From Candidatus Binatia bacterium (GTDB lineage: Bacteria; Desulfobacterota; Binatia; HRBIN30): DNA of 61,470 nucleotides. Below the pieces are notes generated by a model, which saw only the letters and a list, made by a program, of their open reading frames with translations, searched no databases and had not been told where the DNA came from. This document shows positions 21,382 through 39,122 of the stretch, in pieces (within the stretch, counting starts at the first letter, position 1; the number at the start of each line of letters is the position of its first letter). The DNA lies in the NCBI GenBank assembly GCA_041497995.1, contig JBGQHM010000001.1:1-61470 (forward strand). The letters are read 5' to 3'. The position numbers were made by a program, and so were the translations under genes.

Positions 21382-21749
21382 GATGTCGACACCTCCGGAT
21401 CGTAGCGACAGACTGCGCCGGTGCGGATCGAGCGCGCGAGGTGGCGCCCGAGCGCCGGATGCTCCTTCTCGATGCGCAGCAGTGCGGTGCGGATGCGCAT
21501 TGTCACGGCGGCGCGGGCGCGCTCCGCCGCTTCCTCTGTCCCAACTTCGCCGTTCGATTCGAGCAAGTCGGCCGCCGGGAGTCCGCCGTCTTGCTGCCCC
21601 AGCAAGCGCGCGATGTCGTGGAGGCCCTTGGCGTCCTTCAAATGGACGACGCGGCCCGCATAGGCGACGGTCCAGAAGTGCCCTTCCTTGCGGAAGACGT
21701 TCTCGGAACCGTCCGTGACGCTGTGAGCGCGCGGCTTCCCTGTGTGCAT
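21369..21749 (-). CDS. small protein paralogous to the C-terminal module of the adjacent STAND ATPase (putative regulator)
   Basis: 126 aa. VFRKEGHFWTVAYAGRVVHLKDAKGLHDIARLL and ERARAAVTMRIRTALLRIEKEHPALGRHLARSIRTGAVCRY are collinear with the last 180 aa of the 21866-25195 product. The 3' end overlaps the fibre-1 start by 13 nt. No clear SD. Confidence 0.7.
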   Translation of the reverse strand: MHTGKPRAHSVTDGSENVFRKEGHFWTVAYAGRVVHLKDAKGLHDIARLLGQQDGGLPAADLLESNGEVGTEEAAERARAAVTMRIRTALLRIEKEHPALGRHLARSIRTGAVCRYDPEVSTSWLL

Positions 21750-21790
21750 TCACAGAGAAGGCGTAAGAAAGATCGTTACAATGTAAGGAA

Positions 21791-21861
21791 GGGGTGTAGG
21801 GGGTCGGGTGTAGGGTGTCAAGCCTGAGGGCCTGAGGGGCTACACCCGACACCCCACACCC
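21791..21861 (-). terminator. long imperfect hairpin (about 20 of 22 bp paired, 26-nt loop) just 3' of the STAND gene stop; probable terminator/insulator
   Basis: The arms GGGGTGTAGGGGGTCGGGTGTAG (21791-21813) and CTACACCCGACACCCCACACCC (21840-21861) are complementary with 2 mismatches. On the transcribed (minus) strand the hairpin is followed by a T-rich, AT-rich stretch (CTTCCTTACATTGTAACGATCTTTCTT). Confidence 0.5.
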
Positions 21862-21865
21862 GTCT

Positions 21866-24800: not shown

Positions 24801-25195
24801 ACCGGCGCATTGGGCAAACGTTCGCGCACCTCGTCGAGGAGCGGCGCGATGTCTGCGACCCCGGGGCCCAGCTCCTCGACCAGCTGCGCCAGCTCGCAGC
24901 TGCGAACGCGTTGGCGGATGATCTGCAGCCACGGCCAGTAGGCGGGCTCGCCCATACTCTGGCACGCACCCCAGAGGACGCGTGCGCCGCGCGCAGCCGC
25001 GTGGTTAGAAAACTCGTCTAGCAGACGGGTCTTGCCGATCCCGGCCTCGCCGGCAATGAGCAGGAGCCGCCCGCGGCCGGCCGCCGCCTCCTCGAACCCG
25101 GCGCGCAACTCGGCCATCTCCCGGTCGCGTCCGACGAACGCGCGGCTGGCAGCGGGATCGTCCCCGACGCCATCGGCTACATTATCAAGACTCAT
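21866..25195 (-). CDS. STAND-type signalling ATPase (AAA_16 P-loop + TPR-like helical repeats) with an uncharacterised C-terminal output module
   Basis: Start MSLDNVADG. FVGRDREMAEL...LLLIAGEAGIGKTRLLDEF (Walker A) and VVLVLDDLHWAD (Walker B), then about 600 aa of TPR-like helices, then the FRKEGDYW.../ERARAAVTMRIR... module. No LuxR HTH and no N-terminal effector domain recognised. Confidence 0.85.
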   Translation of the reverse strand: MSLDNVADGVGDDPAASRAFVGRDREMAELRAGFEEAAAGRGRLLLIAGEAGIGKTRLLDEFSNHAAARGARVLWGACQSMGEPAYWPWLQIIRQRVRSCELAQLVEELGPGVADIAPLLDEVRERLPNAPVRAATLEPEQARFRLFDSIATFLKSVARAQPVVLVLDDLHWADEASTQLLQFLSRELRDARLLVVGTYRHDEIGRQHPLSRALGDLTIGGRILLAGFSEPEVGRFIRAVLETDCPESVAAAVHRHTEGNPFFVSEVVRLLASDGRLPRASDIESGALGIPQGVREVIGRRLDRLSEDCSRALTVAAVIGREFDIELLGGASELTRARLPDLLHEAVAARVLAERPFVLGGFRFAHDLIRAALYSELATDQRRQLHRRVGETLEALCAGDPEPHLAELAHHFFEGTRVGDATKVIDYATRAGQQALGMFAYEEAVKHFERARVCLEATADETPLCELLLALGRAQISAGGWREGKETLRQAAQLARKTGDRTRLAQAALGIVTPFPGFGRVDRTRIALLEEALQSLSTADSALRSQVMSRLANECRGADSDETREALSREALEMARRVGDSAALAQALVSRFWVLFASLAPKTLLYLASEVIDLGTALGDKDLTVMGYNCRITVLQTMGDLARADRDVARRAQLADELREPGHQFTTLCLQATRAVMLGRFPQAEELASQAMAALLGQRSSIGGVLGLLVFHLRYEQGRCDEVEASVVAIAEHDTAIPAARAALASLYVELDREAEARSEFERLAANDFRDLPRDATWLTAVACLAIVCTFLRDTRRSAFLYQLLAPHADLQVGALYFCYVGSVQRYLAILAMTAEHYEQAEQHFQSAFAVETRLGARPALARTQLAYADLLFRRNGPADRERAMRYVEEALQAAQSLGMNSLARKAAALRSAALAAPTLAAAPPIEAAVFRKEGDYWTLAYQGRSVRLKDAKGLRDIAALLMRPGESLHVADLVAGSAAAPAGVRRERAPSDPAIDGRARQEYRARLAELREELEDAERLADLGRADRARTELDLIAGELAAAYGLGGRRRRPGDPAERARAAVTMRIRDSLAKIKRHHPALALHLSRSVKTGTFCSYVPEAPVRWNL

Positions 25196-25509
25196 CTCGG
25201 CGTGTTCCTCTGCGACAGAAGGGGGTGTAGACGCCGGACCCGCTTCACGCGCACTTCTATACTGCTGAGGATCGAGCACGGTCAAACCATTGTGTCTGAA
25301 GCCCGCGAGGGTGCGCGCAACGAGGCTCGGGCGGCAGCGCATCCTCCCGTTGGCGCCACAGGAAGCGCTCGAAAGTTTCTACAGAGTGAGCGACTATGGC
25401 CGCTGCCAATCCTCAGTTCGGGCGCCGCGTCTGCTTCCCGCGGCGCCAACGGATTGTCGATGTACCCGAACACCTCCAGGGGTTACTTCCTCCAGCGGTG
25501 CGGCTTACC

Positions 25510-25525
25510 TGGCATGTGTCATGCT
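25510..25525 (+). promoter_or_regulatory. candidate sigma-54 (-24/-12) promoter element
   Basis: TGGCATGTGTCATGCT has GG-N10-GC spacing; the consensus is TGGCAC-N5-TTGCW. It overlaps the first ATG of the 25521 ORF. If it is real, the CDS would start at the GTG at 25554 (GAGG 8 nt upstream). Confidence 0.25.
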
Positions 25526-26252
25526 CATTCGGGGCTCGGGCGAGGCAACCAGAGTGATTGAACTGAAAGAAGGGGCGGAGGTGCTCGAGTATCAGGCAAG
25601 CGACGAGTATCTACTCACCCCAGGGCCCGAGGCGGACGCCCAACCTCTTCACCTTGACGATCGGGTTCAAGGGCTTCTGCTTGAGTACGTTCACGAGTTC
25701 CGGCAGCAGCAAGTCCTCGTGACTGGGGAGGCGCCGCGTCGAGCATCCCGTAGAGTCTACTGGGCCGTGGGGAGTCTCAGCGTGATCCTGGTGGCGGCAT
25801 TGGCGGTGGTGCTGCTGCAACCGGAGAGCGAAGCGGAGCGATCCGCAAGGCTCCATAACGCGAAGCTTTGTGGGGAACGTCAGACGGTAGTCATGCGCGC
25901 CATTGGGCGCTACACCCGCGACCACAGTCGGCCTCCGGAGAACCTCGAGGCCCTACGGCCCGGCTATCTCGCCGAGCCACCCGTTGATCCTGCCTCGGGT
26001 CTTCCGTACCGCTACTCCGCGCGGGGAGACGTCATTGGGCTCTCTTGCCCGAATCATCTGCTCGCACAGCAGCCGAGTCTGCAGGCGGACACGGCCGGCA
26101 CACGAGCGGGGCGCCGTGCTCCGGCCACCCCAGCAGCCGCCCGCCAACTGCGCGAAGGGCCTTCGGCGCGATCTGGCAGCCGGGAGTACTACGAAAGTTG
26201 TAGGTTAGCGCGCTGCCAGGCCCGGGAAATCGTACCTTTTGCCGATGGTTGA
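25521..26252 (+). CDS. bitopic membrane protein with GspG/pseudopilin-like C-terminal domain but no prepilin leader
   Basis: One TM segment (VYWAVGSLSVILVAALAVVLL), then LCGERQTVVMRAIGRYTRDHSRPPENLEALRPGYLAEPPVDPASGLPYRYSARGD. This resembles the L..Y..d.G.yP..L..LvpgYl...P.DPwG.pY.Y core of T2SS GspG. Alternative start at the GTG at 25554. Confidence 0.6.
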   Translation: MLIRGSGEATRVIELKEGAEVLEYQASDEYLLTPGPEADAQPLHLDDRVQGLLLEYVHEFRQQQVLVTGEAPRRASRRVYWAVGSLSVILVAALAVVLLQPESEAERSARLHNAKLCGERQTVVMRAIGRYTRDHSRPPENLEALRPGYLAEPPVDPASGLPYRYSARGDVIGLSCPNHLLAQQPSLQADTAGTRAGRRAPATPAAARQLREGPSARSGSREYYESCRLARCQAREIVPFADG

Positions 26253-26297
26253 GCTGCGCCGCGTGACGTACCCTGACTGCAGCAGGACTGACAGTCG

Positions 26298-26810
26298 ATG
26301 ACACCATCCGCAGCGCGTTCCCGGCCTCTGGCGCCACGGCGGCGCATTGGATTTGTCCGGGAGGCCGCCTCTCGTGGGTACAGCTTGCTCGAACTGTTGG
26401 TTACCATGGCGGTTCTTGCCATTTTGACCGGTACCGCGTTCCTCGGGTATCGCTCCAACCGGCTGCAGATCAACAATGCCCAACGCCTCGTCATGGGCAC
26501 TCTCCGCGGCGCCCGGGCCAGCGCGATCAGCAAGAGTGTACACTTTACCGTCGAGTTTGCCGCCAGTGACCGCCTCCTCGTGCAGCGCATGGTGCACGAC
26601 GACAGCGGCTGGCATGTCGACGCCACGAGTGTGCGCACGGTGCCGATCCCCGCACCAGCGTACGTGTCGTCAACCGCTGTGGGCACTCGGGTGGAGTTCG
26701 ACAGCCGTGGCGTCGCGGTCAACCTGTCAGCACCGCAGCAGATCGAGCTGCGCGACTCGTTTGGGGTGAGCAAGTCGCTCCAGGCGTGGCCGTCTGGAGA
26801 GATCCAATGA
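26298..26810 (+). CDS. prepilin-type minor pilin (GspH/FimT-like)
   Basis: Prepilin cleavage/methylation motif RG|YSLLELLVTMAVLAIL with Glu at +5. Confidence 0.8.
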   Translation: MTPSAARSRPLAPRRRIGFVREAASRGYSLLELLVTMAVLAILTGTAFLGYRSNRLQINNAQRLVMGTLRGARASAISKSVHFTVEFAASDRLLVQRMVHDDSGWHVDATSVRTVPIPAPAYVSSTAVGTRVEFDSRGVAVNLSAPQQIELRDSFGVSKSLQAWPSGEIQ

Positions 26811-27211
26811 ATCGGAGTGCCGAGCGCCCTCGTCGAGTCGCTCGTAACCAGCGGGGCACGACACTGATCGAGTGCGTTGTGGCGATCGTGTTGTTCGCGA
26901 TCGCCGCGGCGGCCATCGGCGACTTGCTGACGGAGCAGATCCGGATGCAACGCAGCAACGGGACAACGAGCACGGCGATCTCTGTGGCAGCAGGCGAACT
27001 CGAGGACGTTCGCACCCTGAACTATGCCAATATGGCCAACCGCTCGTCGACCACCGTCGTCGACGGCGTCACCTACAACCTCGAAACCAGCGTCGCAGCG
27101 AATGCGCCCCAAAAGAACATGAAGACCGTTCACACCACGGTGGTTTGGACCGAACCCACGGGCGCCAAGAGCTACACGCTGCATTCGATCTATACCGATG
27201 TCACGCACTGA
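26807..27211 (+). CDS. prepilin-type minor pilin (PilV-like)
   Basis: The ATG overlaps the upstream stop (ATGA). Motif RG|TTLIECVVAIVLFAIA with Glu at +5. Confidence 0.8.
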   Translation: MNRSAERPRRVARNQRGTTLIECVVAIVLFAIAAAAIGDLLTEQIRMQRSNGTTSTAISVAAGELEDVRTLNYANMANRSSTTVVDGVTYNLETSVAANAPQKNMKTVHTTVVWTEPTGAKSYTLHSIYTDVTH

Positions 27212-28031
27212 AGCCGGCCTCTCGCTCGTCGAGCTGCTTGTCACCATCGCGCTCATCTCTTTGGTGCTCGGCGCCGCCGGCGGCCTGGTGGCCGTGGCAC
27301 GTCCGAGCATCAAGCAGCAGATTGTCCGCATCGAGACGACACAGGCGCTGCGCGCTACGCTGGATACCCTGGCGCGCGACCTCCGCCTGGGCGGGGCGTG
27401 TTTGCCAACGAATGGGACCTTCGTCGCCTTGTCGGGCAGCGATGCAGGTGTGACCGACCGCATTGTTACCCGCCATGGCGTGGTGCGATCGGATCTCACC
27501 TGCGTGCGTACGGCCCTGCGCACTGACCTGCCTGCCAACGGCACTGACCTCGCCGTCGACTCCGCCGCTGGGTTCGCGGCCGGCATGTGGATCTACATCC
27601 GCCACCCCAACGGCACCGGCGAGTTCTTCAGTATCACCAACGCACAAGCGGCCGCGCGAACCTTGCAGAAGAGTACCGCGCTGTCGAAGGACTACCCGAT
27701 ATCCAGCGGTGTCTACGCCGTTGACGAACGCACGTACGCGATCGACACATCGGACCCAACTATGCCAACGTTCACGGTTGCCACGAACGGCGGGCCCGCG
27801 CTCCCGTTCGCATCCGGAGTGGAAGCGTTGAACATCCAGTATCAGCTGGCGCGCAATTGTCCCTCCTGCGACGTTGTCGACCTCCCTGTCAACGACGGCG
27901 AGTGGATGCTGGTAACCGAGATCAACGTCGGCGTTACGGTGCGCTCGCGCGTTGCAGACGCCCAGGGACAGTTCTTCCGGCGCACCGGCCGAATCAAAGC
28001 GAAGCCCCGCAATCTGCTGCCACGCGCATAA
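27198..28031 (+). CDS. prepilin-type minor pilin (PilW-like)
   Basis: 14-nt overlap with the upstream gene. Motif AG|LSLVELLVTIALISLVLG with Glu at +5. Confidence 0.8.
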   Translation: MSRTEAGLSLVELLVTIALISLVLGAAGGLVAVARPSIKQQIVRIETTQALRATLDTLARDLRLGGACLPTNGTFVALSGSDAGVTDRIVTRHGVVRSDLTCVRTALRTDLPANGTDLAVDSAAGFAAGMWIYIRHPNGTGEFFSITNAQAAARTLQKSTALSKDYPISSGVYAVDERTYAIDTSDPTMPTFTVATNGGPALPFASGVEALNIQYQLARNCPSCDVVDLPVNDGEWMLVTEINVGVTVRSRVADAQGQFFRRTGRIKAKPRNLLPRA

Positions 28032-28077
28032 ACCCGATGCAGCCGACGAGCAGATCACGCGCAAGGGTTGCTTCAGC

Positions 28078-30147
28078 ATGACTCCATCATCTCGCAACAA
28101 TCAAGCAGGGGTGGCACTCATCACGGTGCTGTTGGTTTTATCGCTCATTATGGTCATGGCGGTCTCCTTGACCACCTCCATCCTTTCGGACACCACCCTC
28201 CGGGGCGCCTTCGCTCGGGTTACCACCGGCTTCTACGCCGCCGAGTCCGGCGTGAACCACGGCATGGGCACCTACCGCAACATCTTTCTCAACTTTCGGG
28301 TGCCGAGCGGATCCGACCTCCTACCTACCAGCCTCACCCTCGGTAACCGCACGGTCACCTACGGCCTCACCGAGGTGCCGGGAAATCCGCAAACGATCGT
28401 GATCCCGGCCGGTCAACTCTTCGGCGGCCTCAACGCCATTCGGTACGCCTACACGGTGAAATCAGAAGCCATCTCCAACGGCGAGACCGAGGCCATCGTC
28501 GGGGCGCAGTTCGACGTGGACTACATCCCCCTGTTTCAGTTCGTCGCCTTCTATACGAACGATCTGGAGATCGAACCAGGCCCAGTTATGCGCTTGCATG
28601 GACGCGTCCACACCAACGGAAACCTCTACCTGAACGCCGGCGACCATCTGTACGTCGAGGACAAGCAGGGGGCCGGAGTCCCTGCCAACCAGGCCATTAC
28701 CACGGTGACGGTGTCCGCCAAGGGGGACGTCTACCGCGGGCGCAAGGACACCACCGATTGCACCGGTGTCGTCACGGTTGACGCGTTGCAGGACCTCGTG
28801 GCGCCGTCACCGGATCTCGATCCCCTCGATTTGGGTTGCGGTGCTGGTGGTACGCGCAAAGTGCCGGCAGCAGAGCTGGCGGCCTGGAAGGGGAGTCTGC
28901 TCGGCAACACGCGCGACCTTGCCGTCCCGAAACCGGACGTGACTGCCAAGGGTGGGGTCTTCTGGACGAACGCAGACCTGCGGATCGTGCTGCGGCTCAA
29001 CGCGAACGACAATCTGCCCGCTGGCCCCAACCTGCCCCATACGATCGAGGTCCAGGACGCTAGCGGCAATCGCAACGCGGCGCAGACCGCGGCCCTGCAC
29101 AACTTCATGACGGACGCCGTCTGGAATACGGCCAACAGCTCTCTGCCCGGAACCATGCCCGTTTTCTACACCGACATACCGACGGGGGCCGGTGGCTGCA
29201 CCTGCACGAACGCCAACGCGACCGCCTGCAACAACGGCGATCTTGTTTGCTACAATCCACCCTTCGCCAGCAACGGGCGCGTCTACGCCACAAGCATGGG
29301 CCCTGCGCTCGGCACCTTCGATCTCGACTACCGTCGCGGCGGTTTCTACAACTGGCGCGAACACAAGTGGCTGTATCTTCTGAACATCAACCTGCACGAT
29401 CTGCTGCTGTGGAATCAATCCAATGGCACCCCGTTTTTTGACCCAGCCGACCTCACCGACGGCGGAGTTGTGATCTACGTCTCGGTACAGGGCCCGGATT
29501 CCGCCGTGGCCAACAATTACGGTGTGCGCGTTTTTGGCTCCGCTAATCTGCCGTTCCCGCCACCACCCGGGGGAGACCCAACCGGGTTGACGGTAGTGAC
29601 TGATCAAGCAGCGTATGTGACCGGTGACTACAACCGCGGCCCCGTCGGCGCGGGAGATCTGCCCAAGCAACCGGCCGCGGTGATCGCCGACAGCCTGAAC
29701 GTGCTGTCGAACCGTTATTTCAGCTCTGTCTCTACCTACACCTGCGGCGCAACCTTCTCGAACGACTGCCAGAGTAATCGTTCGCTCACCGATGCGTCCC
29801 GTCGCGGTGCCGATACCACTATCAATGCGGCGTTCCTGGCTGGCGTGGACACCACCCTGGTCGGCACCTACAACGGTGGCCTTGAGAACTATCCGCGCTT
29901 TCAGGAGGACTGGGGCGGTTTCGCCCTGGCGTACCGCGGGTCCTTCGTAAGCCTCGGCACCCCGGAGCGTGTGAACGGTATCTGGTGCGGGACCGGCGGC
30001 AGCAGCGTCAGTGGCTGCAACATCTACGTTCCGCCGGTTCGGAACTGGGATTACGACGCCGACTTCAACGATGTGAAGAACATCCCGCCACTGGCTCCCC
30101 GCTTCGTCTCCGTCGAGCAAGTCTTGTTCAGCCAGGACCTACAGTAG
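28078..30147 (+). CDS. large PilX-N-domain pilus tip/adhesin-like protein (689 aa)
   Basis: Start MTPSSRNNQAGVALITVLLVLSLIMVMAVSL...FYAAESGVNHG, i.e. a PilX_N-type hydrophobic N-terminus without Glu5. This is followed by a long Gly/Asn/Thr-rich beta-rich region. Confidence 0.75.
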   Translation: MTPSSRNNQAGVALITVLLVLSLIMVMAVSLTTSILSDTTLRGAFARVTTGFYAAESGVNHGMGTYRNIFLNFRVPSGSDLLPTSLTLGNRTVTYGLTEVPGNPQTIVIPAGQLFGGLNAIRYAYTVKSEAISNGETEAIVGAQFDVDYIPLFQFVAFYTNDLEIEPGPVMRLHGRVHTNGNLYLNAGDHLYVEDKQGAGVPANQAITTVTVSAKGDVYRGRKDTTDCTGVVTVDALQDLVAPSPDLDPLDLGCGAGGTRKVPAAELAAWKGSLLGNTRDLAVPKPDVTAKGGVFWTNADLRIVLRLNANDNLPAGPNLPHTIEVQDASGNRNAAQTAALHNFMTDAVWNTANSSLPGTMPVFYTDIPTGAGGCTCTNANATACNNGDLVCYNPPFASNGRVYATSMGPALGTFDLDYRRGGFYNWREHKWLYLLNINLHDLLLWNQSNGTPFFDPADLTDGGVVIYVSVQGPDSAVANNYGVRVFGSANLPFPPPPGGDPTGLTVVTDQAAYVTGDYNRGPVGAGDLPKQPAAVIADSLNVLSNRYFSSVSTYTCGATFSNDCQSNRSLTDASRRGADTTINAAFLAGVDTTLVGTYNGGLENYPRFQEDWGGFALAYRGSFVSLGTPERVNGIWCGTGGSSVSGCNIYVPPVRNWDYDADFNDVKNIPPLAPRFVSVEQVLFSQDLQ

Positions 30148-30158
30148 ATTCGCTTCCA

Positions 30159-30173
30159 TGGCACGAGCGCTGC
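30159..30173 (+). promoter_or_regulatory. candidate sigma-54 (-24/-12) promoter upstream of the PilB-REC gene
   Basis: TGGCACGAGCGCTGC matches TGGCACG-N4-TTGC at all but one position, with correct GG-N10-GC spacing. It lies in the 295-nt intergenic region, about 270 nt before the ATG. Confidence 0.35.
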
Positions 30174-30442
30174 CCGGAGCGGGCGCAGACAAGAACGGGC
30201 ATCGGGGCCGCACCCCAGACCGCGTTCGATATCGGCACCGACGGGATCTTGATCCGCAAGGCTCTGCGAGTTGGGGTGGTGGTTCGGTTTTCGGCTCCTC
30301 GATCGAGTCAGTGCGTCTCTTCCGCCTAGCGGACCCCGCGGCAGCCGCGGCGACATCGGCGTGTCGCGACGCGTCCGGAATTGTCGGCGGGCCCTGACAA
30401 CCCTCGCGCCTTTTCGTCACCAGGCATGCGCATGCACCCGGC

Positions 30443-32908
30443 ATGCAACTTGCGGAGCGACTCGCGGGGTCGAGAACGAGAATGACGCACAAACAGGCGG
30501 CGGAGAATGGGTCGCTGTTGCGGTACTTGGCGCGAATAGCGCTCATCTCGAACGACATTGCGCAGCGCGCCGAAGCGGAGTTGGCGTGCCAGGAGAGTAG
30601 CGTGACGGCCATCGACTGGCTGGCGCGCAACGCTGGGGTCGGGGAGGACGCGGTGGCGGAGTCGCTGGCGCGGTCGCTGCGCTGGCCACTCGTCGACCTT
30701 GCCACCGTGGCGTTGGATCCGGCGGTGACCCGGCTGGTGCGCGAGGACCTCGCAACGCAGCACCAGATCGTCCCGCTGCGTGTGGAACAACACGGCCTCG
30801 TCATTGCCATGGCCAATCCGCTCGACCGCGGTGTCTTGCGCGACATCGAGTTTGCCACCGGCAAGCGGGTCCACGTGGTAGTCGCGACACAGACCGCAGT
30901 ACGCGACGCCTTAAGACACGCCTACCATCTCGACGATGCACTGAACGAATACTTGCGAGGGGTCCCCGAGGGAAGTGACTTCCACGTTGCAGAGCAGCGG
31001 GATGAACCGACGACCGACCTGTCCAACCTGATGCGCGAGAGCACGCTTGCGCCGGTGGTGAAGCTCCTCAACCTCATCCTCGTCGAAGGCGTGCGTGGAC
31101 GCGCCAGTGACATCCACATCGAAGCCGAGCCCACGGCCGTGCGGGTTCGCTATCGTATCGATGGCATTCTGGAAGAATCGCTGCGCTTGCCGAAATGGAT
31201 TCAGGATCCCCTCATCGCGCGCTGCAAGGTCCTCGCAAGGTTGGACATCACGGAACGACGCGTCCCGCAAGACGGCCGCATTCAGATGCGCTTCCGCGAA
31301 GGACTGGTCGATCTGCGCGTCTCTAGTCTGCCGACGCAGTTCGGCGAGAAGGTGACCATGCGCATTCTGGACCCGAGCAGCTCGCCCAGCGGGCTCGAGG
31401 CGTTCAAGCTGTCGCCGCGCGACCTGAAGGCCATCCGCCACGCGATTGTGCGGCCGGAGGGGATCATCCTGGTGACGGGCCCGACGGGGAGCGGCAAGAC
31501 GACCACGCTCTACGGCATGATTGCCGAGATCATCTCACCGACGCGCAACATCGTTACCATCGAAAACCCCATCGAGTACCAGATCGCCGGGATCAATCAG
31601 GTCGAGATCAACGAGAAGCAAGGGCTGACGTTCGCGCAGACGCTGCGTTCGATCCTGCGGCAAGACCCGGATGTGATCCTGGTGGGTGAGATCCGCGACA
31701 GCGAAACGGCGCAGATCGCGCTGCGCGCCGCGCAGACCGGTCACCTGGTGCTGAGCACGCTGCACACCAACGATGCGGTGTCGACCATCAACCGACTGCT
31801 CGATCTCGGCATTGAACCATACATGCTGGCGTCGTCCCTCAATTTGATCCTGGCGCAGCGGCTGGTGCGCCGGATCTGTGAGGCGTGCGCGGAGCCGTAC
31901 GAGCCTGAAGCCGAAAGCCTGCGCGCATTGCAGATCGGTACCGTGCTGCAGCCGCTCCGACGCGGTCGCGGCTGTCCGGCGTGCCGCAAGACCGGCTGGG
32001 CCGGGCGCCTCGGGGTGTATGAGGTCCTGCCGATCACACCGGCGATGGGAAAGCTCATCGAAACCAAGGCGAGGGAGAGTGCGCTGCGCATGCAGGCGCG
32101 CACCGACGGCACGAAGTTCCTGGCAGAACACGCCGCGGCGCGCGTCTCCGCCGGCCTGACCACCGCCGAGGAAGTGTTGCGTGTCGTTGACGTTGCCGCC
32201 GAGGCGCCGCGCTGCCCGGCGTGCGACCGCGAGGTCGAGGAGAACTTCACGGTCTGTCCGCATTGCGCGACGGTTCTGCAGTGCAACTGTTCGAGCTGCT
32301 CCATGCGGCTGCAGAAGGAGTGGCAGATCTGTCCGTACTGCGGTGCCCCCGCGAACCACGCGGCCGCCCCGGCGGCCGTCCCTTCACCCATGGCGGCGCC
32401 TCCCAGGGGCGCCGCTCCTCCCGCCGCAGCCGAACCCCGTCGCTACCGTGCGTTGGTGGTCGACGACCATGAGGATATGCGCCGGCTGATCAAGTTCACC
32501 TTGGACCACAGTGAGCTGCCGATCACGATGATCGGTGCCGCCAACGGCGCCGAGGCGCTCGAGGCGGCGCAGGCCGAGCCGCCCGATCTGATTCTTCTCG
32601 ACATCATGATGCCCGGTATGGACGGGTTCCAGGTATGCGAGCAGCTGCGCGCCAACGTCCGTACGGCCTTCATTCCCATCCTCATGCTCACCGCGCGTGA
32701 CGATCCGGGTAGTCGTGCCCGCGGCTTCATGGCCGGCACCGACGACTACGTCAGCAAGCCGTTCGCGCGCGCCGAGCTGTTGGCGCGCGTACGCCGCCTG
32801 CTCGAACGCACGTACGGAACATTCTTGCCCAAGGTGCCCGAGCCCGAGCCGGCACCTGCGCCCGCGGCAGACGCTGCGGGCGAGGGGCGACCCGCCGCCC
32901 TTCACTGA
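30443..32908 (+). CDS. GspE/PilB-family secretion/pilus ATPase fused to a double zinc ribbon and a C-terminal response-regulator receiver (REC) domain
   Basis: T2SSE N-domain (IDWLARNAGV...LVDL...IVPL...IAMANP). Walker A VTGPTGSGKTTTLY, Asp box, Walker B DPDVILVGEIRD, His box TGHLVLSTLHTND, and the tetracysteine CEAC...CPAC. Then CPACDREVEENFTVCPHCATVLQCNCSSCSMRLQKEWQICPYCG. The REC domain spans 32441-32807 (VVDDHEDM...LILLDIMMPGMDG...LMLTA...YVSKPF). The ATG at 30482 is an alternative start. Confidence 0.9.
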   Translation: MQLAERLAGSRTRMTHKQAAENGSLLRYLARIALISNDIAQRAEAELACQESSVTAIDWLARNAGVGEDAVAESLARSLRWPLVDLATVALDPAVTRLVREDLATQHQIVPLRVEQHGLVIAMANPLDRGVLRDIEFATGKRVHVVVATQTAVRDALRHAYHLDDALNEYLRGVPEGSDFHVAEQRDEPTTDLSNLMRESTLAPVVKLLNLILVEGVRGRASDIHIEAEPTAVRVRYRIDGILEESLRLPKWIQDPLIARCKVLARLDITERRVPQDGRIQMRFREGLVDLRVSSLPTQFGEKVTMRILDPSSSPSGLEAFKLSPRDLKAIRHAIVRPEGIILVTGPTGSGKTTTLYGMIAEIISPTRNIVTIENPIEYQIAGINQVEINEKQGLTFAQTLRSILRQDPDVILVGEIRDSETAQIALRAAQTGHLVLSTLHTNDAVSTINRLLDLGIEPYMLASSLNLILAQRLVRRICEACAEPYEPEAESLRALQIGTVLQPLRRGRGCPACRKTGWAGRLGVYEVLPITPAMGKLIETKARESALRMQARTDGTKFLAEHAAARVSAGLTTAEEVLRVVDVAAEAPRCPACDREVEENFTVCPHCATVLQCNCSSCSMRLQKEWQICPYCGAPANHAAAPAAVPSPMAAPPRGAAPPAAAEPRRYRALVVDDHEDMRRLIKFTLDHSELPITMIGAANGAEALEAAQAEPPDLILLDIMMPGMDGFQVCEQLRANVRTAFIPILMLTARDDPGSRARGFMAGTDDYVSKPFARAELLARVRRLLERTYGTFLPKVPEPEPAPAPAADAAGEGRPAALH

Positions 32909-32984
32909 GGCGAGACCGGGGGACGCGCAATGGCACCCCACCGCGTCATGCAACTCCTTGCCACGACGGCGGGAGTACGCGCGC

Positions 32985-34997
32985 TTACTCCGCAGAGCCG
33001 TTGCACGGCAGGTCGACGTTGAACATCGTGCCGCGCGGAGTGAGGCGCACACAGTCGATGCTGCCGCGGGGCGCCAGCACGATTTGCCGCGCGACGGCAA
33101 GGCCGATGCCGGAGCCGTTCGGCTTGGTGGTCTCGAACAGGCGAAACACCTGCATGGTCTCGGGAATGCCCGGCCCGGTGTCGGTGACCGAGATGCGCAC
33201 CGCTTGTGGTCCAGGACGCGTGACGTCGATGTCCACGCGGCCGGGACCCCGATCAATCGCTTCGATGGCATTCTTTACCAGATTGTCGAAGACGCGGTGC
33301 AGCTTCTCCTCATCCGCCGTCAGCAGCGGCACGTGCGATGGTGTGGCGAAGTCGATGTCGATCGCCCGCGCCGCCGCTACGGGTTCCCAGAGGTCGACGA
33401 TCCGTTGCAGGAAACGGCGGAGGTCGACGGCCGTCACGTGAAGCCGCTGCTCGCGCGAAAACTCCATGAACTCTTTGGTGAGCGAGTCGAGGCGACGTAC
33501 TTCGGCGAGGATGCTCTCCACGCCCTTGACGACCGTGCTGATGGGTTGGTTGCCGTCGCGGCCGGCGCGCCGCAGGATGAGCTGCGCTTGCATGGACACT
33601 CCCGTCAGCGGGTTGCCCAGGTCGTGTACGATCTGTGCGGTGATAGCGCCGATGTCCGCCAGCCGCTCACGCTGCTGTGTCGCCTTCTGCAGCTCCCGCA
33701 ACTCAGCTTCCGCCCGCCTCCGTTCGATGAAGTCACCGATCTGGCGACCGAGGGCATCGAGCGTCTCCAACCAATCGGGCTCCGGCCTGCGGCGCTGGCG
33801 GCCGAAGAACACCGAGACGCCGATGATGGTGGTGTCCGTCCGTATCGGGAAGGCGAAGGCACCATGCAGTCCGAGCTGCGCGGCGGCGGTGAACCGGCTG
33901 AAGCACGCGGACGCCTCAACATCCGGAATCCACGCCGGCTCGCCGGTCGCCCACGCGTGACCGGGTAAGCCGCTCCCCGCAGCGAAGGTGATGGGCTGAC
34001 TCAGCGCGACGAAATGGGTCGTGTCGATGGACGCCACATTCCACGCGGCACTCCAGCGCAAAGCACCGGCGGTCGTGTCGACCAGCCACAGCTCGCCAAG
34101 CTCCCAACCGATAGCCTCGCCGATGGCCTGGAGCAGCCGTGGGCCGGCGTCGGCGAGTGACGGCGAAGCCGCCAGTACCCGCGTCGTGGCGTATTGGAGA
34201 GCGATCCGCATCTCCGAACGCTTGCGCACCGTGATGTCGCGTATGAGTCCGGCAAACAACCTGCGGTCGCCGAGAGCGACCTCGCTGACGGCGAGATCCA
34301 TCGGAAACGTCGTGCCGTCCTGGCGCTGGCCGACGACCTCGCGGCCGATACCGATAATCCGCTTCACACCGGTCTGCAGATAGTGGGCGACGTAGTCATC
34401 GTGCTGCTCGCGATAGGGCAGTGGCATGAGGATGCTGACGTTGCGCCCCAACACTTCGGTAGCGGCGTAGCCGAACAGCCGCTCTGCAGCGGGGTTGAAG
34501 GACTGGATCAGCCCGCGCTCATCGATCGTGATGACGCCGTCGACCGCCGTCGTGACAATGGCACGATTGACCGCCTGACTCTCGCCGAGCGCCGCTTCGA
34601 CCTGGCGGCGCCCGCGTCGCACCTCGGCGTCCCGCAACTCGCGTTCGACGACACCGGCCAGTCGGTCGAGATGATCCTTCAGCAGGTAGTCCCGCGCGCC
34701 GGCGCGCATCGCGGCGACGGCGGCCTCTTCGCCGACGGTGCCGGCGAGCAGAATGACCGGCACGTCGTAGCCACCGTCATCCAGGAGCTGCAAGGCGGCG
34801 AGGCCGCTGAAGTGGGGCATCGAATAGTCCGATAGCACGATGTCGTAGCTCTTCTCACCGAGGGCTGCGAGCATTGCGTCCGCGGTCTCAACGCGTCGCC
34901 AGGTGACGTCGAAGCCGGCGCTCTGCAAAGCGCGCATGCTCAGCTCGGCGTCTTCGTCGGAATCATCGACGATCAGGACTTGTAGCGGCACACCCAT
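32985..34997 (-). CDS. hybrid sensor histidine kinase (REC-PAS-GAF-HisKA-HATPase_c)
   Basis: Start MGVPLQVLIVDDSDED (REC; SDYSMPHFSG). PAS (DGVITIDERGLIQSFNPAAERLFGY). GAF (...GLPGHAW.TGEP.WI.D...). H-box IVHDLGNPLTG. N/G boxes NLVKNAIEA, DTGPGIP, GSGIGLAV. Confidence 0.9.
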   Translation of the reverse strand: MGVPLQVLIVDDSDEDAELSMRALQSAGFDVTWRRVETADAMLAALGEKSYDIVLSDYSMPHFSGLAALQLLDDGGYDVPVILLAGTVGEEAAVAAMRAGARDYLLKDHLDRLAGVVERELRDAEVRRGRRQVEAALGESQAVNRAIVTTAVDGVITIDERGLIQSFNPAAERLFGYAATEVLGRNVSILMPLPYREQHDDYVAHYLQTGVKRIIGIGREVVGQRQDGTTFPMDLAVSEVALGDRRLFAGLIRDITVRKRSEMRIALQYATTRVLAASPSLADAGPRLLQAIGEAIGWELGELWLVDTTAGALRWSAAWNVASIDTTHFVALSQPITFAAGSGLPGHAWATGEPAWIPDVEASACFSRFTAAAQLGLHGAFAFPIRTDTTIIGVSVFFGRQRRRPEPDWLETLDALGRQIGDFIERRRAEAELRELQKATQQRERLADIGAITAQIVHDLGNPLTGVSMQAQLILRRAGRDGNQPISTVVKGVESILAEVRRLDSLTKEFMEFSREQRLHVTAVDLRRFLQRIVDLWEPVAAARAIDIDFATPSHVPLLTADEEKLHRVFDNLVKNAIEAIDRGPGRVDIDVTRPGPQAVRISVTDTGPGIPETMQVFRLFETTKPNGSGIGLAVARQIVLAPRGSIDCVRLTPRGTMFNVDLPCNGSAE

Positions 34998-35422: not shown

Positions 35423-35716
35423 TCATGCCGACGCAGGAGGGACGACAGACACCTTCACCTTCCGCCTTTTCGGCTTTGCGCGTTTAGCCGGCTTGGCCCC
35501 AGCCTCGAGCTCCTTGCGGATCTCGTGCACGTACTTCTCCACCTGCGCCGCGGCCATGGCGGCGCGCTTACGCAGCTGGTCTGCGACCGCCTTGAGGTTC
35601 TTGAGGAAGCCAGCGGCCTCGGCCCGCTTGCGAAGGTCCGTCCGCAGCCGCTTTGCGAGCCCTTCCACCTCCTTGATGAGTGTTCCAACCCGATCGTGTT
35701 GCTTCTTCGTCGTCAT
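35423..35716 (-). CDS. small basic coiled-coil protein with Lys/Arg/Pro/Ala tail (phasin- or H1-tail-like; function unknown)
   Basis: 97 aa. A helical heptad-like body (LIKEVEGLAKRLRTDLRKRAEAAGFLKNLKAVADQLRK) is followed by AKPAKRAKPKRRKVKV. Confidence 0.55.
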   Translation of the reverse strand: MTTKKQHDRVGTLIKEVEGLAKRLRTDLRKRAEAAGFLKNLKAVADQLRKRAAMAAAQVEKYVHEIRKELEAGAKPAKRAKPKRRKVKVSVVPPASA

Positions 35717-35852: not shown

Positions 35853-38546
35853 TCAACGGGGTGCTCCGCTCTCCCTGTCGACCACGTCCCGCCGATACAG
35901 CCAGCCGCAGCGCACCAGCGTCTTCTCGATTTCCACCGCGATGAAGACGACGGCGGACACGGCTAGGCACAGGACGAGCTCGCCGGCGCTCAGCGTGTCG
36001 GTCTTGAAGACGGCGTGCGCGGCTGGGAGGTAGATGGTGAGCAACTGCAGCGCGACCGTCAGCAGTACCGCGCCGAGGAGTGGCCTATTCGACCACAGTC
36101 CTTGCTGAAAGAGCGATTGTGTCTCTGAGCGGATGGCCAGCACGTGGCCCATCTGCGACAACGAGAGCACCGTGAAGACCATGGTCCGCCAGTGTGCCAG
36201 GCCCGTGTGGTAGGCCCACGCCTGGGTGAGGAGCGACGCGCCGCCCATCAGGAGACCCACCCACACGATGTGCTGCCACATGCCGTGGGCGAAGAGGCTC
36301 TCAGCGGGGGGCCGCGGTGGGCGGTGCATGATGGCCTTCTCTTGCGGCTCGGCTGCCAGCGCGACGCCGGGCAGGCCGTCGGTCACCAGGTTGATCCACA
36401 GAATGTGAATGGGCAGGAGCGGGATGGGCAGCCCGAGAAAGGGGGCAAGGAAGATCGTCCAGATCTCACCCGAGTTACAGGTGACGGCATAGCGGATGAA
36501 CTTGCGGATGTTGTCGAAGATGCGCCGTCCTTCCCGTACCGCGGCGACGATGGTGGCGAAGTTGTCGTCGAGCAGGATCATGTGCGCCGCCGCGCGAGCC
36601 ACGTCGGTACCGGTCACACCCATCGCTACGCCGATGTCCGCCTGCTTCAGCGCCGCTGCGTCATTGACGCCATCGCCCGTCATGGCAACGAACTCGCCCC
36701 GGTCTTGGAGCGCTTTGACGATCTTGATCTTCTGCTCCGGCGCCACGCGCGCATACACGCGGACGTGTTCGACGTGTGCCTCGAACTCTTGCATCGACAG
36801 CGCCTGGAGTCGCTGGCCCGTCAGCACCTCACCGTCGTCCGCGATGATTCCGAGCTGTGCGGCGATGGCGCGCGCCGTGGCGGGATGATCGCCGGTAATC
36901 ATCACCGGCGTGATACCGGCGGAGCGGCACATGGCTACCGCCTCGCGGGCCTCCGGGCGCGGCGGGTCGATGAGGCCGACCAAACCGAGAAACGACAGCT
37001 CGTCTTCCACGACGAACGGAGAAAGATCGCCCGGCATGGCCGGCCACGTGCGGTACGCGATGGCCAGCACACGCAAGCCTTCGGCGGCCATCTGCTCGGC
37101 CCGTTCGAGCACGCGGGTGGTCTGCAAGGGCAGGGCACCCCCCGGGCCCATGGCGCTGGCGCATGCAGTCAGGACGGCCTCCGGCGCCCCTTTGGTGAAG
37201 GCCGCAATTGCGCCGCCGTGTCGGTGCAGCGTTGTCATGCACTTGCGCTCCGCATCGAACGGAATCTCGGCGAGCCGGGGTGTGGTCGCCTCGAGCGCCG
37301 CCCGCTCGTAGCCAGCCGCCACTGCGGCCAAGTACAGGGCGACCTCGGTTGGATCGCCACGCACCTGGTCGCGGTGGTCGGAGATGGCGTCGTTGCACAA
37401 GGCCAATGCGGTGTGAAAAAGGCGATAGAGCTCGGAGTCGGCGCCAGTCTCCGTCGGCGTCATCAACTGCGCACCAAGCAAGAGCTCCACCGCACGCATC
37501 TGATTCTGCGTGAGCGTGCCGGTCTTGTCGGCGCAGATGTAAGTCACCGAGCCGAGCGTCTCGACGGCCGGGAGGCGGCGAATGAGCGCCCGCTGTCGCA
37601 CCATGCGTCGCGCGCCCAGCGCCAACGACACCGTCACCACCGCCGGCAGGGCTTCCGGGATCGCAGCGACGGCGAGGCTCACGGCGGTGAGGAACATGAG
37701 GACAACTGACTCGCCGCGCGCCAGCCCGATGACGAAGACGATGGTGCAGATGCCAATGGCGGCCAGTGCCAAGCGTTGCCCGAACTGGGCGAGCCGCTTC
37801 TGGAGCGGTGTCGTGCGGTCGGCGGCACTACTCAGGAGGGTCGCGATCTTGCCCAGCTCGGTGTCCATGCCGGTGGCAATCACCACCCCGGAGCCGCGGC
37901 CGTAAGTGACAAGCGTTCCCTTGTAGGCCATGTTGCGGCGGTCACCGAGCAACGACTCCGGATCGCTGAGCGCCACATCCGTCTTCTCGATGGGCACTGA
38001 CTCACCCGTCAGGGTTGCTTCATCGACCTTCAGCTGGGCACTTTCGATGAGCCGCAGATCTGCGGGGATGATGTTACCCGCATCGAGCAGCACGATGTCA
38101 CCTGGTACGAGCTCGGTTGCGGACACCACTTGCAGCCGCGCGGCGCGCCGGACGGTAGCGGTCGGGGCGGCCATGATCCTCAAAGCCGCGACTGCGCGGT
38201 CGGCGCGGTACTCCTGGAGGAAGCCGATGGTGCCGTTGAGCAGAACAATGATCACGATGGTGATGGCGTCGGGCGGTGCACCGACCAGACCCGAGATGAT
38301 TGCCGCGGCGATCAACACGACAATCATGAAGTCGGTGAACTGATCGAGTAGCATGCGGAGCGGGCCGCGGCGCCGTGCCTCCTGCAACTCGTTGGCGCCG
38401 TAGCGAGCGGTGCGCTGCTCGACTTCGGTTGGGCTCAAGCCAGTCTGCGGATCAACCTGGAGGTGGTGCGCGGTGGCCGCAGCGGTGAGGATGTGCCAGG
38501 CGCGTGGCGATGTCAGGGCGCCTGAACGGCGAGCTGTCTGCGTCAT
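35853..38546 (-). CDS. cation-transporting P-type ATPase (P2-type, Ca2+/Mg2+-ATPase-like)
   Basis: LTGESVP (actuator TGES), ICADKTGTLTQN (DKTGT phosphorylation site), MTGDGVNDAAALKQADIGVAMG (hinge), and 10 predicted TM segments. Confidence 0.9.
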   Translation of the reverse strand: MTQTARRSGALTSPRAWHILTAAATAHHLQVDPQTGLSPTEVEQRTARYGANELQEARRRGPLRMLLDQFTDFMIVVLIAAAIISGLVGAPPDAITIVIIVLLNGTIGFLQEYRADRAVAALRIMAAPTATVRRAARLQVVSATELVPGDIVLLDAGNIIPADLRLIESAQLKVDEATLTGESVPIEKTDVALSDPESLLGDRRNMAYKGTLVTYGRGSGVVIATGMDTELGKIATLLSSAADRTTPLQKRLAQFGQRLALAAIGICTIVFVIGLARGESVVLMFLTAVSLAVAAIPEALPAVVTVSLALGARRMVRQRALIRRLPAVETLGSVTYICADKTGTLTQNQMRAVELLLGAQLMTPTETGADSELYRLFHTALALCNDAISDHRDQVRGDPTEVALYLAAVAAGYERAALEATTPRLAEIPFDAERKCMTTLHRHGGAIAAFTKGAPEAVLTACASAMGPGGALPLQTTRVLERAEQMAAEGLRVLAIAYRTWPAMPGDLSPFVVEDELSFLGLVGLIDPPRPEAREAVAMCRSAGITPVMITGDHPATARAIAAQLGIIADDGEVLTGQRLQALSMQEFEAHVEHVRVYARVAPEQKIKIVKALQDRGEFVAMTGDGVNDAAALKQADIGVAMGVTGTDVARAAAHMILLDDNFATIVAAVREGRRIFDNIRKFIRYAVTCNSGEIWTIFLAPFLGLPIPLLPIHILWINLVTDGLPGVALAAEPQEKAIMHRPPRPPAESLFAHGMWQHIVWVGLLMGGASLLTQAWAYHTGLAHWRTMVFTVLSLSQMGHVLAIRSETQSLFQQGLWSNRPLLGAVLLTVALQLLTIYLPAAHAVFKTDTLSAGELVLCLAVSAVVFIAVEIEKTLVRCGWLYRRDVVDRESGAPR

Positions 38547-38771
38547 CAGGTCAGTGACCGAACTGGTAGAGCAGGCATAGTCCTTACCGCCGGCCGCGCA
38601 ACTTTCCTGCCACGCGCGCGTCGGGTACGCCTACCGCCCACCCCGACCCCGGTTCTCGAAACTGGCGAACCAAGCGGGGCGATTCCCGTGGGTGGCAAGC
38701 GGCGATAACTGTTGGGCGCGGATCGGGGACAAGGTGCGCTGGCGAGCGGCTTGCACCGCATCAGCGCTAGC

Positions 38772-39122
38772 ATGACTCTTCGAATCAACGACATGCGGCA
38801 GTCCCTCCTGGATCGGCGCGCCGCGCTGTTTCGCACGGTGGCGCAGGTTGAGGACGACCTGCGCTGGTTGGACACGAACATCGAGCCAGAGGTGGAAGAG
38901 GAGGGACAGGAGGAGAACATCGCTCGGTTGCTGGCACGCCTGGACGATCGGGGCAAGGCCGAGATCGAGGCAATCGATGCGGCGTTGGCTCGCATCGCTA
39001 CAGGCGCGTATGGTCGCTGCGACCTATGCGGCAAGGCCATTCCTGCGGCGCGACTTGCCGCGATGCCGATGGCGCTCACCTGCGTGGACTGCGCGGCGGC
39101 GCGTGAACGCGGCCCGTCCTGA
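38772..39122 (+). CDS. DksA/TraR-family C4 zinc-finger protein
   Basis: Coiled-coil N-part and C-terminal CDLCGKAIPAARLAAMPMALTCVDC (CxxC-N17-CxxC). The start is taken at the ATG at 38772; the ORF also opens at 38712. Confidence 0.8.
   Translation: MTLRINDMRQSLLDRRAALFRTVAQVEDDLRWLDTNIEPEVEEEGQEENIARLLARLDDRGKAEIEAIDAALARIATGAYGRCDLCGKAIPAARLAAMPMALTCVDCAAARERGPS

Follow-up and report, generated by a model that had tools for sequence, protein, structure and literature searches.

Fusion of a PilB-family ATPase with a double zinc ribbon and a CheY-like receiver domain in Candidatus Binatia and other uncultured bacteria

The stretch of DNA analysed here (hereafter the window) comprises 61,470 nucleotides of a Candidatus Binatia bacterium (GenBank assembly GCA_041497995.1, contig JBGQHM010000001.1, positions 1 to 61,470) and harbours a gene (30443..32908, + strand) for an 821-aa protein in which an ATPase of the PilB/GspE family is continued by a double zinc ribbon and a receiver (REC) domain. 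A gene for a soluble histidine kinase (32985..34997, - strand) converges on it, and an operon of four genes for prepilin-type proteins (26298..30147, + strand) precedes it. The open reading frame (ORF) of the ATPase gene runs uninterrupted over 821 codons, with an alternative start at M14 (nt 30482) leading to the 808-aa form deposited in databases. Its GC contents of 0.68/0.48/0.82 at the three codon positions are typical of real genes in the window, which has 65 % GC overall. Pfam domains were detected in the order MshEN (residues 81-165, 77.5 bits), T2SSE (residues 201-580, E 6e-130), DZR (residues 591-634, 28.7 bits, barely above the cut-off of 27.3) and Response_reg (residues 671-784, 102.8 bits). 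Among 5.8 billion proteins searched, more than 115 representatives of clusters at the 90 % identity level share, with 55-100 % identity, the domain string MshEN-T2SSE-DZR-REC, and 45 of them (53-89 % identity) were aligned for the assessment of residue invariance. An AlphaFold2 (AF2) model of the 821-aa protein, computed with a 45-sequence alignment as input, has a mean predicted local distance difference test score (pLDDT) of 81 and consists of an N1 domain modelled with confidence (residues 14-173), a hinge without predicted order (175-192), a core formed by the N2 domain and the C-terminal domain (CTD; 193-581), the ribbon and receiver described below and a disordered tail at the C-terminus.

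The N1 domain (residues 14-173; 30482..30961, + strand) is assigned to the MshEN/T2SSE_N fold by its Pfam match, at an AF2 pLDDT of ~90. The ATPase core of N2 domain and CTD (residues 201-580; 31043..32182, + strand) contains the Walker A motif GPTGSGKT (346-353), the Asp box (369-379), the Walker B motif (408-419) and the His box (432-444) that characterize the T2SSE (PF00437) superfamily, and all four are, like the tetracysteine zinc motif of the CTD (C479/C482/C511/C514), invariant in the 45 relatives. The joint presence of N1 domain and tetracysteine identifies an assembly (extension) ATPase of the PilB/GspE type as opposed to a PilT-type retraction ATPase. In agreement with this, the best match by sequence among structures in the PDB is Geobacter PilB (6olj/5tsg, E 1e-133), and the ranking places the PilB proteins of the type IVa pili (T4aP) of Geobacter and Myxococcus (E 1e-133 to 1e-123) above GspE/EpsE and far above PilT, with bit scores of 450 for PilB vs only ~126 for PilT. 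Structural comparison by Foldseek superposes the core on PilB of Geobacter metallireducens (5tsh) with a template modelling (TM) score of 0.90 at 48 % identity.

The double zinc ribbon (residues 591-634; 32213..32344, + strand) comes directly after the last helix of the core and has the pattern CPAC-x10-CPHC-x7-CSSC-x10-CPYC, its four CxxC pairs starting at residues 591, 605, 616 and 630 (nt 32213-32341). The eight Cys as well as W627 and P631 are invariant in the 45 relatives, and the AF2 model contains a ribbon-like segment with short strands at this position (590-636, pLDDT 73-81). Four CxxC pairs and a score above the cut-off place the segment in the DZR family (PF12773), for which zinc binding is predicted. 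A Pro/Ala-rich tether (residues 641-662; 32363..32428, + strand), disordered in the model (pLDDT ~40) and part of a flexible stretch of ~25-30 residues, connects the ribbon to a CheY-like receiver (residues 668-791; 32444..32815, + strand). The latter is modelled as a (βα)5 fold with five strands and five helices (pLDDT >90) and possesses the acidic pocket D674/D675, the predicted phospho-acceptor D720 (in LILLDIMMP), T750 (in LMLTA), and Y769 and K772 (in YVSKPF). Five of these residues (D674, D675, D720, T750 and K772) are catalytic and do not vary among the 45 relatives, while the switch residue Y769 is kept in at least 90 %, so that acidic pair, Asp, Thr, Lys and predicted fold all agree with a phosphorylatable receiver of the Response_reg family (PF00072); its nearest solved relatives are receivers of the PleD, PhoP and PhoB type. 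Averaged per segment, the receiver is as conserved as the ATPase core (0.75 vs 0.77-0.78), i.e. under equal constraint. Highest values within the receiver are reached by β4 (0.96), α5 (0.85) and α3 (0.82), and the lowest ones of the entire protein by the linker (0.34) and the C-terminal tail (residues 795-821, 0.17). The original prediction, made from the letters of the window, had read this gene as a complete secretion/pilus ATPase with N1E domain, Walker A/B, Asp and His boxes and tetracysteine, followed by a double zinc ribbon at about 32212-32343, a Pro/Ala linker and a terminal, canonical CheY-like REC domain (32441-32807). Pfam, motif positions and the AF2 model agree with it throughout: every motif listed was located and the coordinates were right within a few bases.

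Because the junction region is of low complexity and rich in GC, possible assembly chimerism at 32150-32450 had initially been raised. That an assembly chimera or a frameshift has artificially joined separate ATPase and response-regulator genes is, however, so improbable as to be negligible. The same continuous ORF is present in the more than 115 independent clusters, which derive from four data sources (NCBI, JGI, ENA and Logan assemblies) and include contigs over 1 Mb. The fusion likewise occurs in 24 fetched loci of the family, contigs >1 Mb again among them, and every ribbon-bearing one has the REC directly after the DZR, down to 45 % identity of the ATPase. Next to this, the eight Cys at the junction are invariant and the GC content at third codon positions (0.82) is uniform across the whole ORF. 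The suspected chimerism was thus not borne out, and chimera and frameshift were both ruled out because more than 115 clusters and 24 loci keep the same architecture. Named members of the clusters are metagenome-assembled genomes assigned mostly to "Candidatus Binatia" or else to "Deltaproteobacteria", and the homologues are automatically annotated as "type IV pilus assembly protein PilB" or "ATPase, T2SS/T4P/T4SS family". A search of metagenome contigs with a 7-sequence alignment yielded 27 loci, mostly on short contigs (loci carry the prefix L). From a scan of genome contigs with the full-length protein, an apparent fusion in L005 (Vulcanimicrobiota), matched by query residues 82-789, was rejected, as the gene is located in a pil cluster and encodes a PilB of the usual kind with 574 aa.

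The wider distribution of the architecture was assessed by an exhaustive HMMER scan of 1.84 billion representatives at 50 % identity, the best 150 clusters of which were classified with domain hidden Markov models built from the family. Among these 150, the order ATPase-DZR-REC is represented by 51 clusters, ATPase-REC with only a low-complexity linker in place of the ribbon by 43, ATPase-DZR without REC by ~30, REC-N1-ATPase-DZR by three and ATPase-REC-REC-REC by one. A C-terminal REC was detected in 94 of the best 150 clusters, and phospho-accepting Asp and conserved Lys are each kept in 88 of these 94. The fusion is therefore not rare but common in environmental genomes. All members found so far originate from uncultured lineages (Binatia, and, as named examples from the wider family, Omnitrophota and Elusimicrobia). 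In a crude tree of the ATPase cores, calculated by the unweighted pair group method with arithmetic mean, clusters with and without REC or DZR are intermingled, implying a minimum of ~31 changes for each of the two domains, a number that truncated gene calls and the roughness of the tree may inflate; this pattern suggests that both domains are labile, modular appendages. At 40 % identity, the locus L119 (7781-15051) contains two tandem PilB-REC paralogues of 709 and 778 aa, followed by genes for a REC protein, a CheC-like phosphatase and two further REC proteins, i.e. a cluster of chemotaxis-like phospho-signalling genes around motor-receiver fusions.

The gene facing the ATPase gene encodes a soluble kinase of the architecture REC-PAS-GAF-HisKA-HATPase_c. 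Its frame extends as far as 35141, and translation is likely to start from M49; the position of this codon, nt 34997, equals the end coordinate of the region originally singled out. The stop codons of kinase and ATPase genes are 76 bp apart. HisKA (35.6 bits) and HATPase_c (68.4 bits) are recognized by Pfam, and the H-box VHDLGNPL (H506), N-box DNLVKNAIEA, G1-box DTGPGI and G2-box GSGIGL identify the protein as a histidine kinase; the Asp of its own N-terminal REC was located at D105. A six-frame profile scan of the window detected the RECs of ATPase and kinase only, and tblastn with the kinase core retrieved no second kinase. With two RECs and one kinase in 61 kb, there is consequently no DNA-binding response regulator nearby, as had been predicted along with the convergent REC-PAS-GAF-HisKA-HATPase kinase, the domains of which are confirmed by Pfam and motif boxes. 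Apart from the REC of the ATPase and its own N-terminal REC, the window offers this kinase no other receiver. An orthologous convergent kinase occurs in all close relatives with enough flanking sequence, namely L085, L086 (92 % identity), L004 (81 %; 12479-15184) and L116 (77 %; 8540-10417). These orthologues keep the N-terminal REC and the HisKA-HATPase core, and their sensor domains are shuffled: the window has GAF, L004 contains one PAS more, and in L116 GAF is substituted by PAS. Of the two proteins, the kinase is the faster-diverging one, with 73-75 % nucleotide identity to L085 and L086 as compared to 88-90 % for the ATPase. It is the most likely candidate for the phospho-donor in the lineage of the window.

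In other lineages, further two-component genes take this place. At least 15 of ~27 loci have a gene for a kinase, a histidine phosphotransfer (Hpt) protein or a REC protein at a distance of up to ~3 kb from the ATPase gene. Directly downstream of the ATPase gene, two Hpt genes are found in L087, one in L088, and one in L112, where three PAS-rich kinases follow; a hybrid kinase plus Hpt are encoded downstream in L092, L094 and L099, and in L096, L100 and L101 single REC genes are encountered less than 1 kb away. In L115 (12468-13193, - strand) and L003 (12497-13204, - strand), the ATPase gene is convergent with genes for mini-kinases of 235-241 aa, in which a clear H-box (HDLKNPLG) is combined with a catalytic domain that is short and possibly degenerate. 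These sensor-less minimal kinases or phosphotransferases share 34 % identity with each other. On account of these Hpt, kinase, mini-kinase and REC genes, a phosphorelay input whose donor differs between lineages is considered likely. In a lineage of 56-58 % identity (L001, L002, L093, L095, L089, L090), the two-component gene is replaced by one for a conserved protein of ~220 aa directly downstream of the ATPase gene (12404-13072 in L001), with predicted coiled coils, a C-terminal hydrophobic segment and no Pfam match.

The ATPase gene is preceded by four genes for prepilin-type proteins resembling pseudopilins or minor pilins (26298-26810, 26786-27211, 27198-28031 and 27952-30147, all + strand). 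They were recognized by the Pfam families N_methyl and PilX_N, the last one encoding a 731-aa PilX_N protein, and a search for strictly defined prepilin motifs recovered two of them. In NCBIfam, similarity to GspH, GspI/PilV, HpsC and HpsA is weak, the HpsA-like patch in the 731-aa protein being short, and no major pilin was detected among the four. According to prepilin-motif scan and tblastn, the occurrence of these genes is restricted to the window, L085 and L086. Nucleotide comparison places them in a 14.1-kb insert (16215-30362) between a gene of the GH94 superfamily and the ATPase gene, which is missing from L004 and L116; GH94 and ATPase genes are adjacent in L004, L116 and L117. Since the operon resides in an insert absent from syntenic relatives, its linkage to the ATPase gene is recent and lineage-specific, and was rejected as a trait of the family. 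In this comparison, the 14.1-kb segment looks like an acquired island. It also holds an EF-hand-like ORF (16242-17138), two genes for large proteins ending in Peptidase_S74, i.e. intramolecular-chaperone domains (17135-19099 and 18835-22032), and a gene for a 1158-aa ATPase of the STAND type (AAA_16-TPR; 21866-25342). The pseudopilin operon and the ATPase gene are separated by a spacer of 295 bp (30148..30442), and the ATPase gene may have its own promoter; a consensus scan for promoters and terminators over 25.3-35.9 kb gave nothing above shuffle expectation, with neither a sigma-70-like site nor a terminator in the 295-bp spacer.

The N1 domain was additionally inspected for the tandem motif by which MshEN domains bind cyclic di-GMP (c-di-GMP), i.e. 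RLGxx(L/V/I)(L/V/I)xxG(L/V/I)(L/V/I)xxxxLxxxLxxQ, 24 residues in length, in tandem copies 5 residues apart (PMC5013675, PMC10333796); imperfect motifs can still bind according to one of these papers. The protein of the window matches 7 of 22 signature positions, and among nine members of the family sampled not more than 9 of 22 are kept. With the motif thus degenerate, control by c-di-GMP via MshEN was rejected at the level of the sequence, and the N-terminal domain appears to have lost the c-di-GMP signature. In L089, a separate ORF (998-1468) upstream of the ATPase gene matches only N1 (MshEN; residues 24-178, 53 % identity) and represents a stand-alone N1 paralogue.

The on/off control of the extension ATPases of type IV pili (T4P) and type II secretion systems (T2SS) is under active study, the known inputs being c-di-GMP (MshEN, FimX/PilZ), polarity proteins and, very recently, stand-alone receivers acting in trans. 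Among the latter, EmvR of Xanthomonas oryzae (2025) is a single-domain receiver with D59 as its phosphorylated residue, which binds PilB and acts as a repressor of the PilB ATPase (PMC11973254), DrdR of X. campestris (2026) is a REC-REC protein that binds PilB and PilT and enhances the ATPase of both (PMC13507683), and the PATAN-REC regulators PixE, PixG and LsiR of Synechocystis bind PilB1 (bioRxiv 10.1101/2021.06.11.447907). The view that this regulatory logic lacks a characterised example is therefore out of date, and only its covalent form is undescribed in the literature searched, in which no PilB/GspE-REC or PilB-DZR-REC fusion was found. A 2024 review of PilB cofactors treats c-di-GMP/MshEN, FimX-PilZ, Pil-Chp and PdeK-PdeR; the word "fused" is absent from it and its sole "fusion" is a fluorescently tagged CpaF (PMC11656802). 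MshEN-REC proteins without ATPase have already been noted (PMC5013675). By analogy, the fusion may be regarded as a covalent variant of the known receiver-PilB logic.

Compared with these and other systems, the protein combines familiar parts in a different order. It shares N1, N2 and CTD, Walker A/B, Asp and His boxes and tetracysteine with T4aP PilB (G. metallireducens 5TSG/5TSH/6OLJ; M. xanthus 3JC8), but adds a C-terminal ribbon, tether and receiver of ~240 residues not seen in any characterised PilB protein retrieved (review PMC11656802), scores under the PilB equivalog cut-off and is not encoded beside pilC, pilT or pilM-Q. As in EmvR, DrdR and the PATAN-REC proteins, a CheY-like receiver would serve as regulatory input to an extension ATPase; these are, however, separate polypeptides acting in trans, and in PATAN-REC proteins it is the PATAN domain and not the REC that contacts PilB1, whereas the receiver of the window is covalently tethered behind a zinc ribbon. 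The c-di-GMP-dependent MshE, PilB and GspE proteins and the FimX-PilZ-PilB system resemble it in that an input domain located in, or bound to, N1 sets assembly by a cytoplasmic signal (PMC5013675, PMC11656802), and differ in the c-di-GMP motif, of which the sampled members keep no more than 9 of 22 signature positions; the input added here is a phospho-receiver at the opposite end. NtrC-type REC-AAA+ proteins, CheB and PleD likewise attach a phosphorylatable REC to a catalytic or oligomeric ATPase domain that it regulates, but there the REC is N-terminal with a structured linker, while here it is C-terminal on a flexible tether with a zinc ribbon and the output domain is a secretion ATPase of the PilT/VirB11 class.

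The architecture and its conservation, the intact catalytic core and receiver site and the recurrent two-component neighbours are evident from the sequences; phosphotransfer to the receiver, its effect on the ATPase and the service of a particular filament machine are inferred. A true, conserved receiver, a REC as conserved as the core and recurring two-component genes make phospho-control of the ATPase the most likely reading of these sequences. In its full form, to which we assign a probability of roughly 0.6, the protein is a PilB-family hexameric assembly ATPase of the T4P extension/T2SS type that is itself a response regulator, its output being its own ATPase ring. A histidine kinase or phosphorelay, most likely the convergent REC-PAS-GAF kinase in the lineage of the window and Hpt or another kinase elsewhere, would phosphorylate D720. 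The phosphorylated receiver would then shift the docking of its conserved α4-β5-α5 face, either to the ATPase ring in cis, to a neighbouring subunit or in receiver-receiver pairing, and this change could switch ATP turnover or engagement of the membrane platform on or off. In this way, a signal from within the cell, perceived by the PAS and GAF domains, would govern the assembly of a pilus or pseudopilus. As the MshEN domain apparently lacks the c-di-GMP signature, phosphorylation may replace c-di-GMP as the input. That the REC is found at the N- or C-terminus, singly or in triplicate, speaks more for a tethered regulator than for rigid allosteric coupling.

Several observations weigh against this reading, and they concentrate on kinase pairing and filament identity as its weak points, next to an architecture that is real, conserved and widespread. 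With respect to the filament, the protein takes a position intermediate between PilB and GspE in NCBIfam and scores under the cut-offs of both equivalogs, PilB (TIGR02538; 571.9 bits, cut-off 675.65) and GspE (TIGR02533; 558.3 bits, cut-off 630.25), and has therefore been filed in the PilB/GspE assembly-ATPase family as an orthologue of neither. Genes for PilC/GspF, PilM-Q, a secretin, prepilin peptidase (PilD) and PilT are all absent from the 61-kb window and from 12 Pfam-annotated related loci, so that the filament role derives from homology alone. The original proposal that phosphorylation gates the motor of a type IV filament hence stands in part: the receiver is intact and two-component neighbours recur, whereas its role as filament motor is no more than a prediction in view of the missing machinery genes, the scores under both cut-offs and the confinement of the pseudopilin operon to the insert. 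With respect to the kinase, an orthologue is absent beside the ATPase gene in L117 (73 % identity) and L118 (68 %), and about one third of the loci (L001/L002, L089, L090, L093, L095, L113, L114, L117, L118 and L120) are devoid of a two-component neighbour. The facing kinase, proposed as the partner, is thus a conserved neighbour at ≥77 % identity (window, L085, L086, L004 and L116) but is replaced by other genes or by none elsewhere, and was rejected as a universal partner. Being convergent, its gene is not co-transcribed with the ATPase gene, and its own N-terminal REC could be the real acceptor. Furthermore, the AF2 model is that of a monomer and silent on the docking site of the REC, and all members of the family are known from sequence and predicted structure alone.

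An alternative in which the receiver determines location or association (polar targeting, recruitment to one of several machines or competition with a canonical PilB) and not catalytic rate, with the ribbon as a protein-binding adaptor, is rather unlikely but the strongest competitor to phospho-control of the ring itself. The REC sits on a disordered, unconserved linker, and its placement at either end of the protein or in three copies favours a recruitment module over rigid allostery; the frequency of ATPase-DZR without REC (~30 of the best 150 clusters) gives the ribbon a role of its own, and in the window and the annotated loci the gene stands apart from any pilus genes of the machinery. 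The PilB review also reports that REC deletions in FimX mislocalise FimX and pilus assembly (PMC11656802). Conversely, the in-trans receivers EmvR and DrdR alter the ATPase of PilB directly (PMC11973254, PMC13507683), and the strong conservation of α5 and β4 is compatible with either model. Somewhat less probable still is that the protein is not a pilus motor, but powers another pseudopilus or secretion system (T2SS-like, or Hps-like polysaccharide export) or acts as an orphan signalling ATPase without filament output. To this would conform its scores under both equivalog cut-offs, the lack of pilC, pilM-Q and pilD beside the gene in the window and the 12 annotated loci, the upstream pseudopilin-like genes with their weak similarities to GspH, GspI, HpsC and HpsA and no major pilin, and the genes for polysaccharide synthesis that follow it in L001 and L113 and for GH94 proteins that precede it in L004, L116, L117 and L112. 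The core is, on the other hand, 47-48 % identical to Geobacter T4aP PilB (TM 0.90) and has retained both N1 domain and tetracysteine, as is typical for ATPases of the assembly type; moreover, polysaccharide and GH94 neighbours are inconsistent across lineages, and the pseudopilin operon is confined to one sub-lineage and its 14-kb insert.

If the ATPase is indeed a response regulator, a natural covalent fusion of PilB and receiver would constitute a "Rosetta stone" for motor control, and offer a single self-contained polypeptide for biochemistry and cryo-electron microscopy of how a receiver alters the PilB hexamer. Its occurrence with an intact phospho-site in ~94 of the best 150 clusters argues that direct phospho-control is widespread beyond Xanthomonas, and the recurrent Hpt and hybrid-kinase neighbours suggest multi-step phosphorelays ending on a motor protein. 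A more speculative and at present doubtful extension is that the PilB-REC and PilB-DZR-REC proteins together make up a large group of alternative motors gated by signals. Such orphan ATPases would join a type IV filament machine encoded elsewhere solely in their phosphorylated state and compete with or replace the housekeeping PilB, a phosphorelay (kinase to Hpt to motor) directly selecting when, or which, filament or pseudopilus is built, bypassing transcription and second messenger; in the window, this control would have become coupled to newly acquired pseudopilins.

Several further genes of the window were compared with those of related loci. The GH94-superfamily gene (14259-16214) encodes 651 aa as compared to 966-986 aa in L004, L116 and L117; tblastn revealed an internal deletion, residues ~222-549 of the L004 homologue being missing. 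Beyond the kinase gene, an ORF for a helical 97-aa protein (35423-35716, - strand) and a gene for a P-type cation ATPase (35853-38546, - strand) were identified. The order kinase, 101-aa ORF and P-type ATPase is kept in L116, and a P-type ATPase is also encoded near the gene in L113. A multi-haem cytochrome c of 459 aa is encoded at 10430-11809, and a DksA/TraR zinc-finger protein adjoining a phosphoribosyltransferase at 38712-39122. The gene at 12018-13583 codes for a wax-ester synthase/diacylglycerol acyltransferase (DGAT) of 521 aa, and a member of the same family adjoins the ATPase gene in L117 and is located at the edge of L116.

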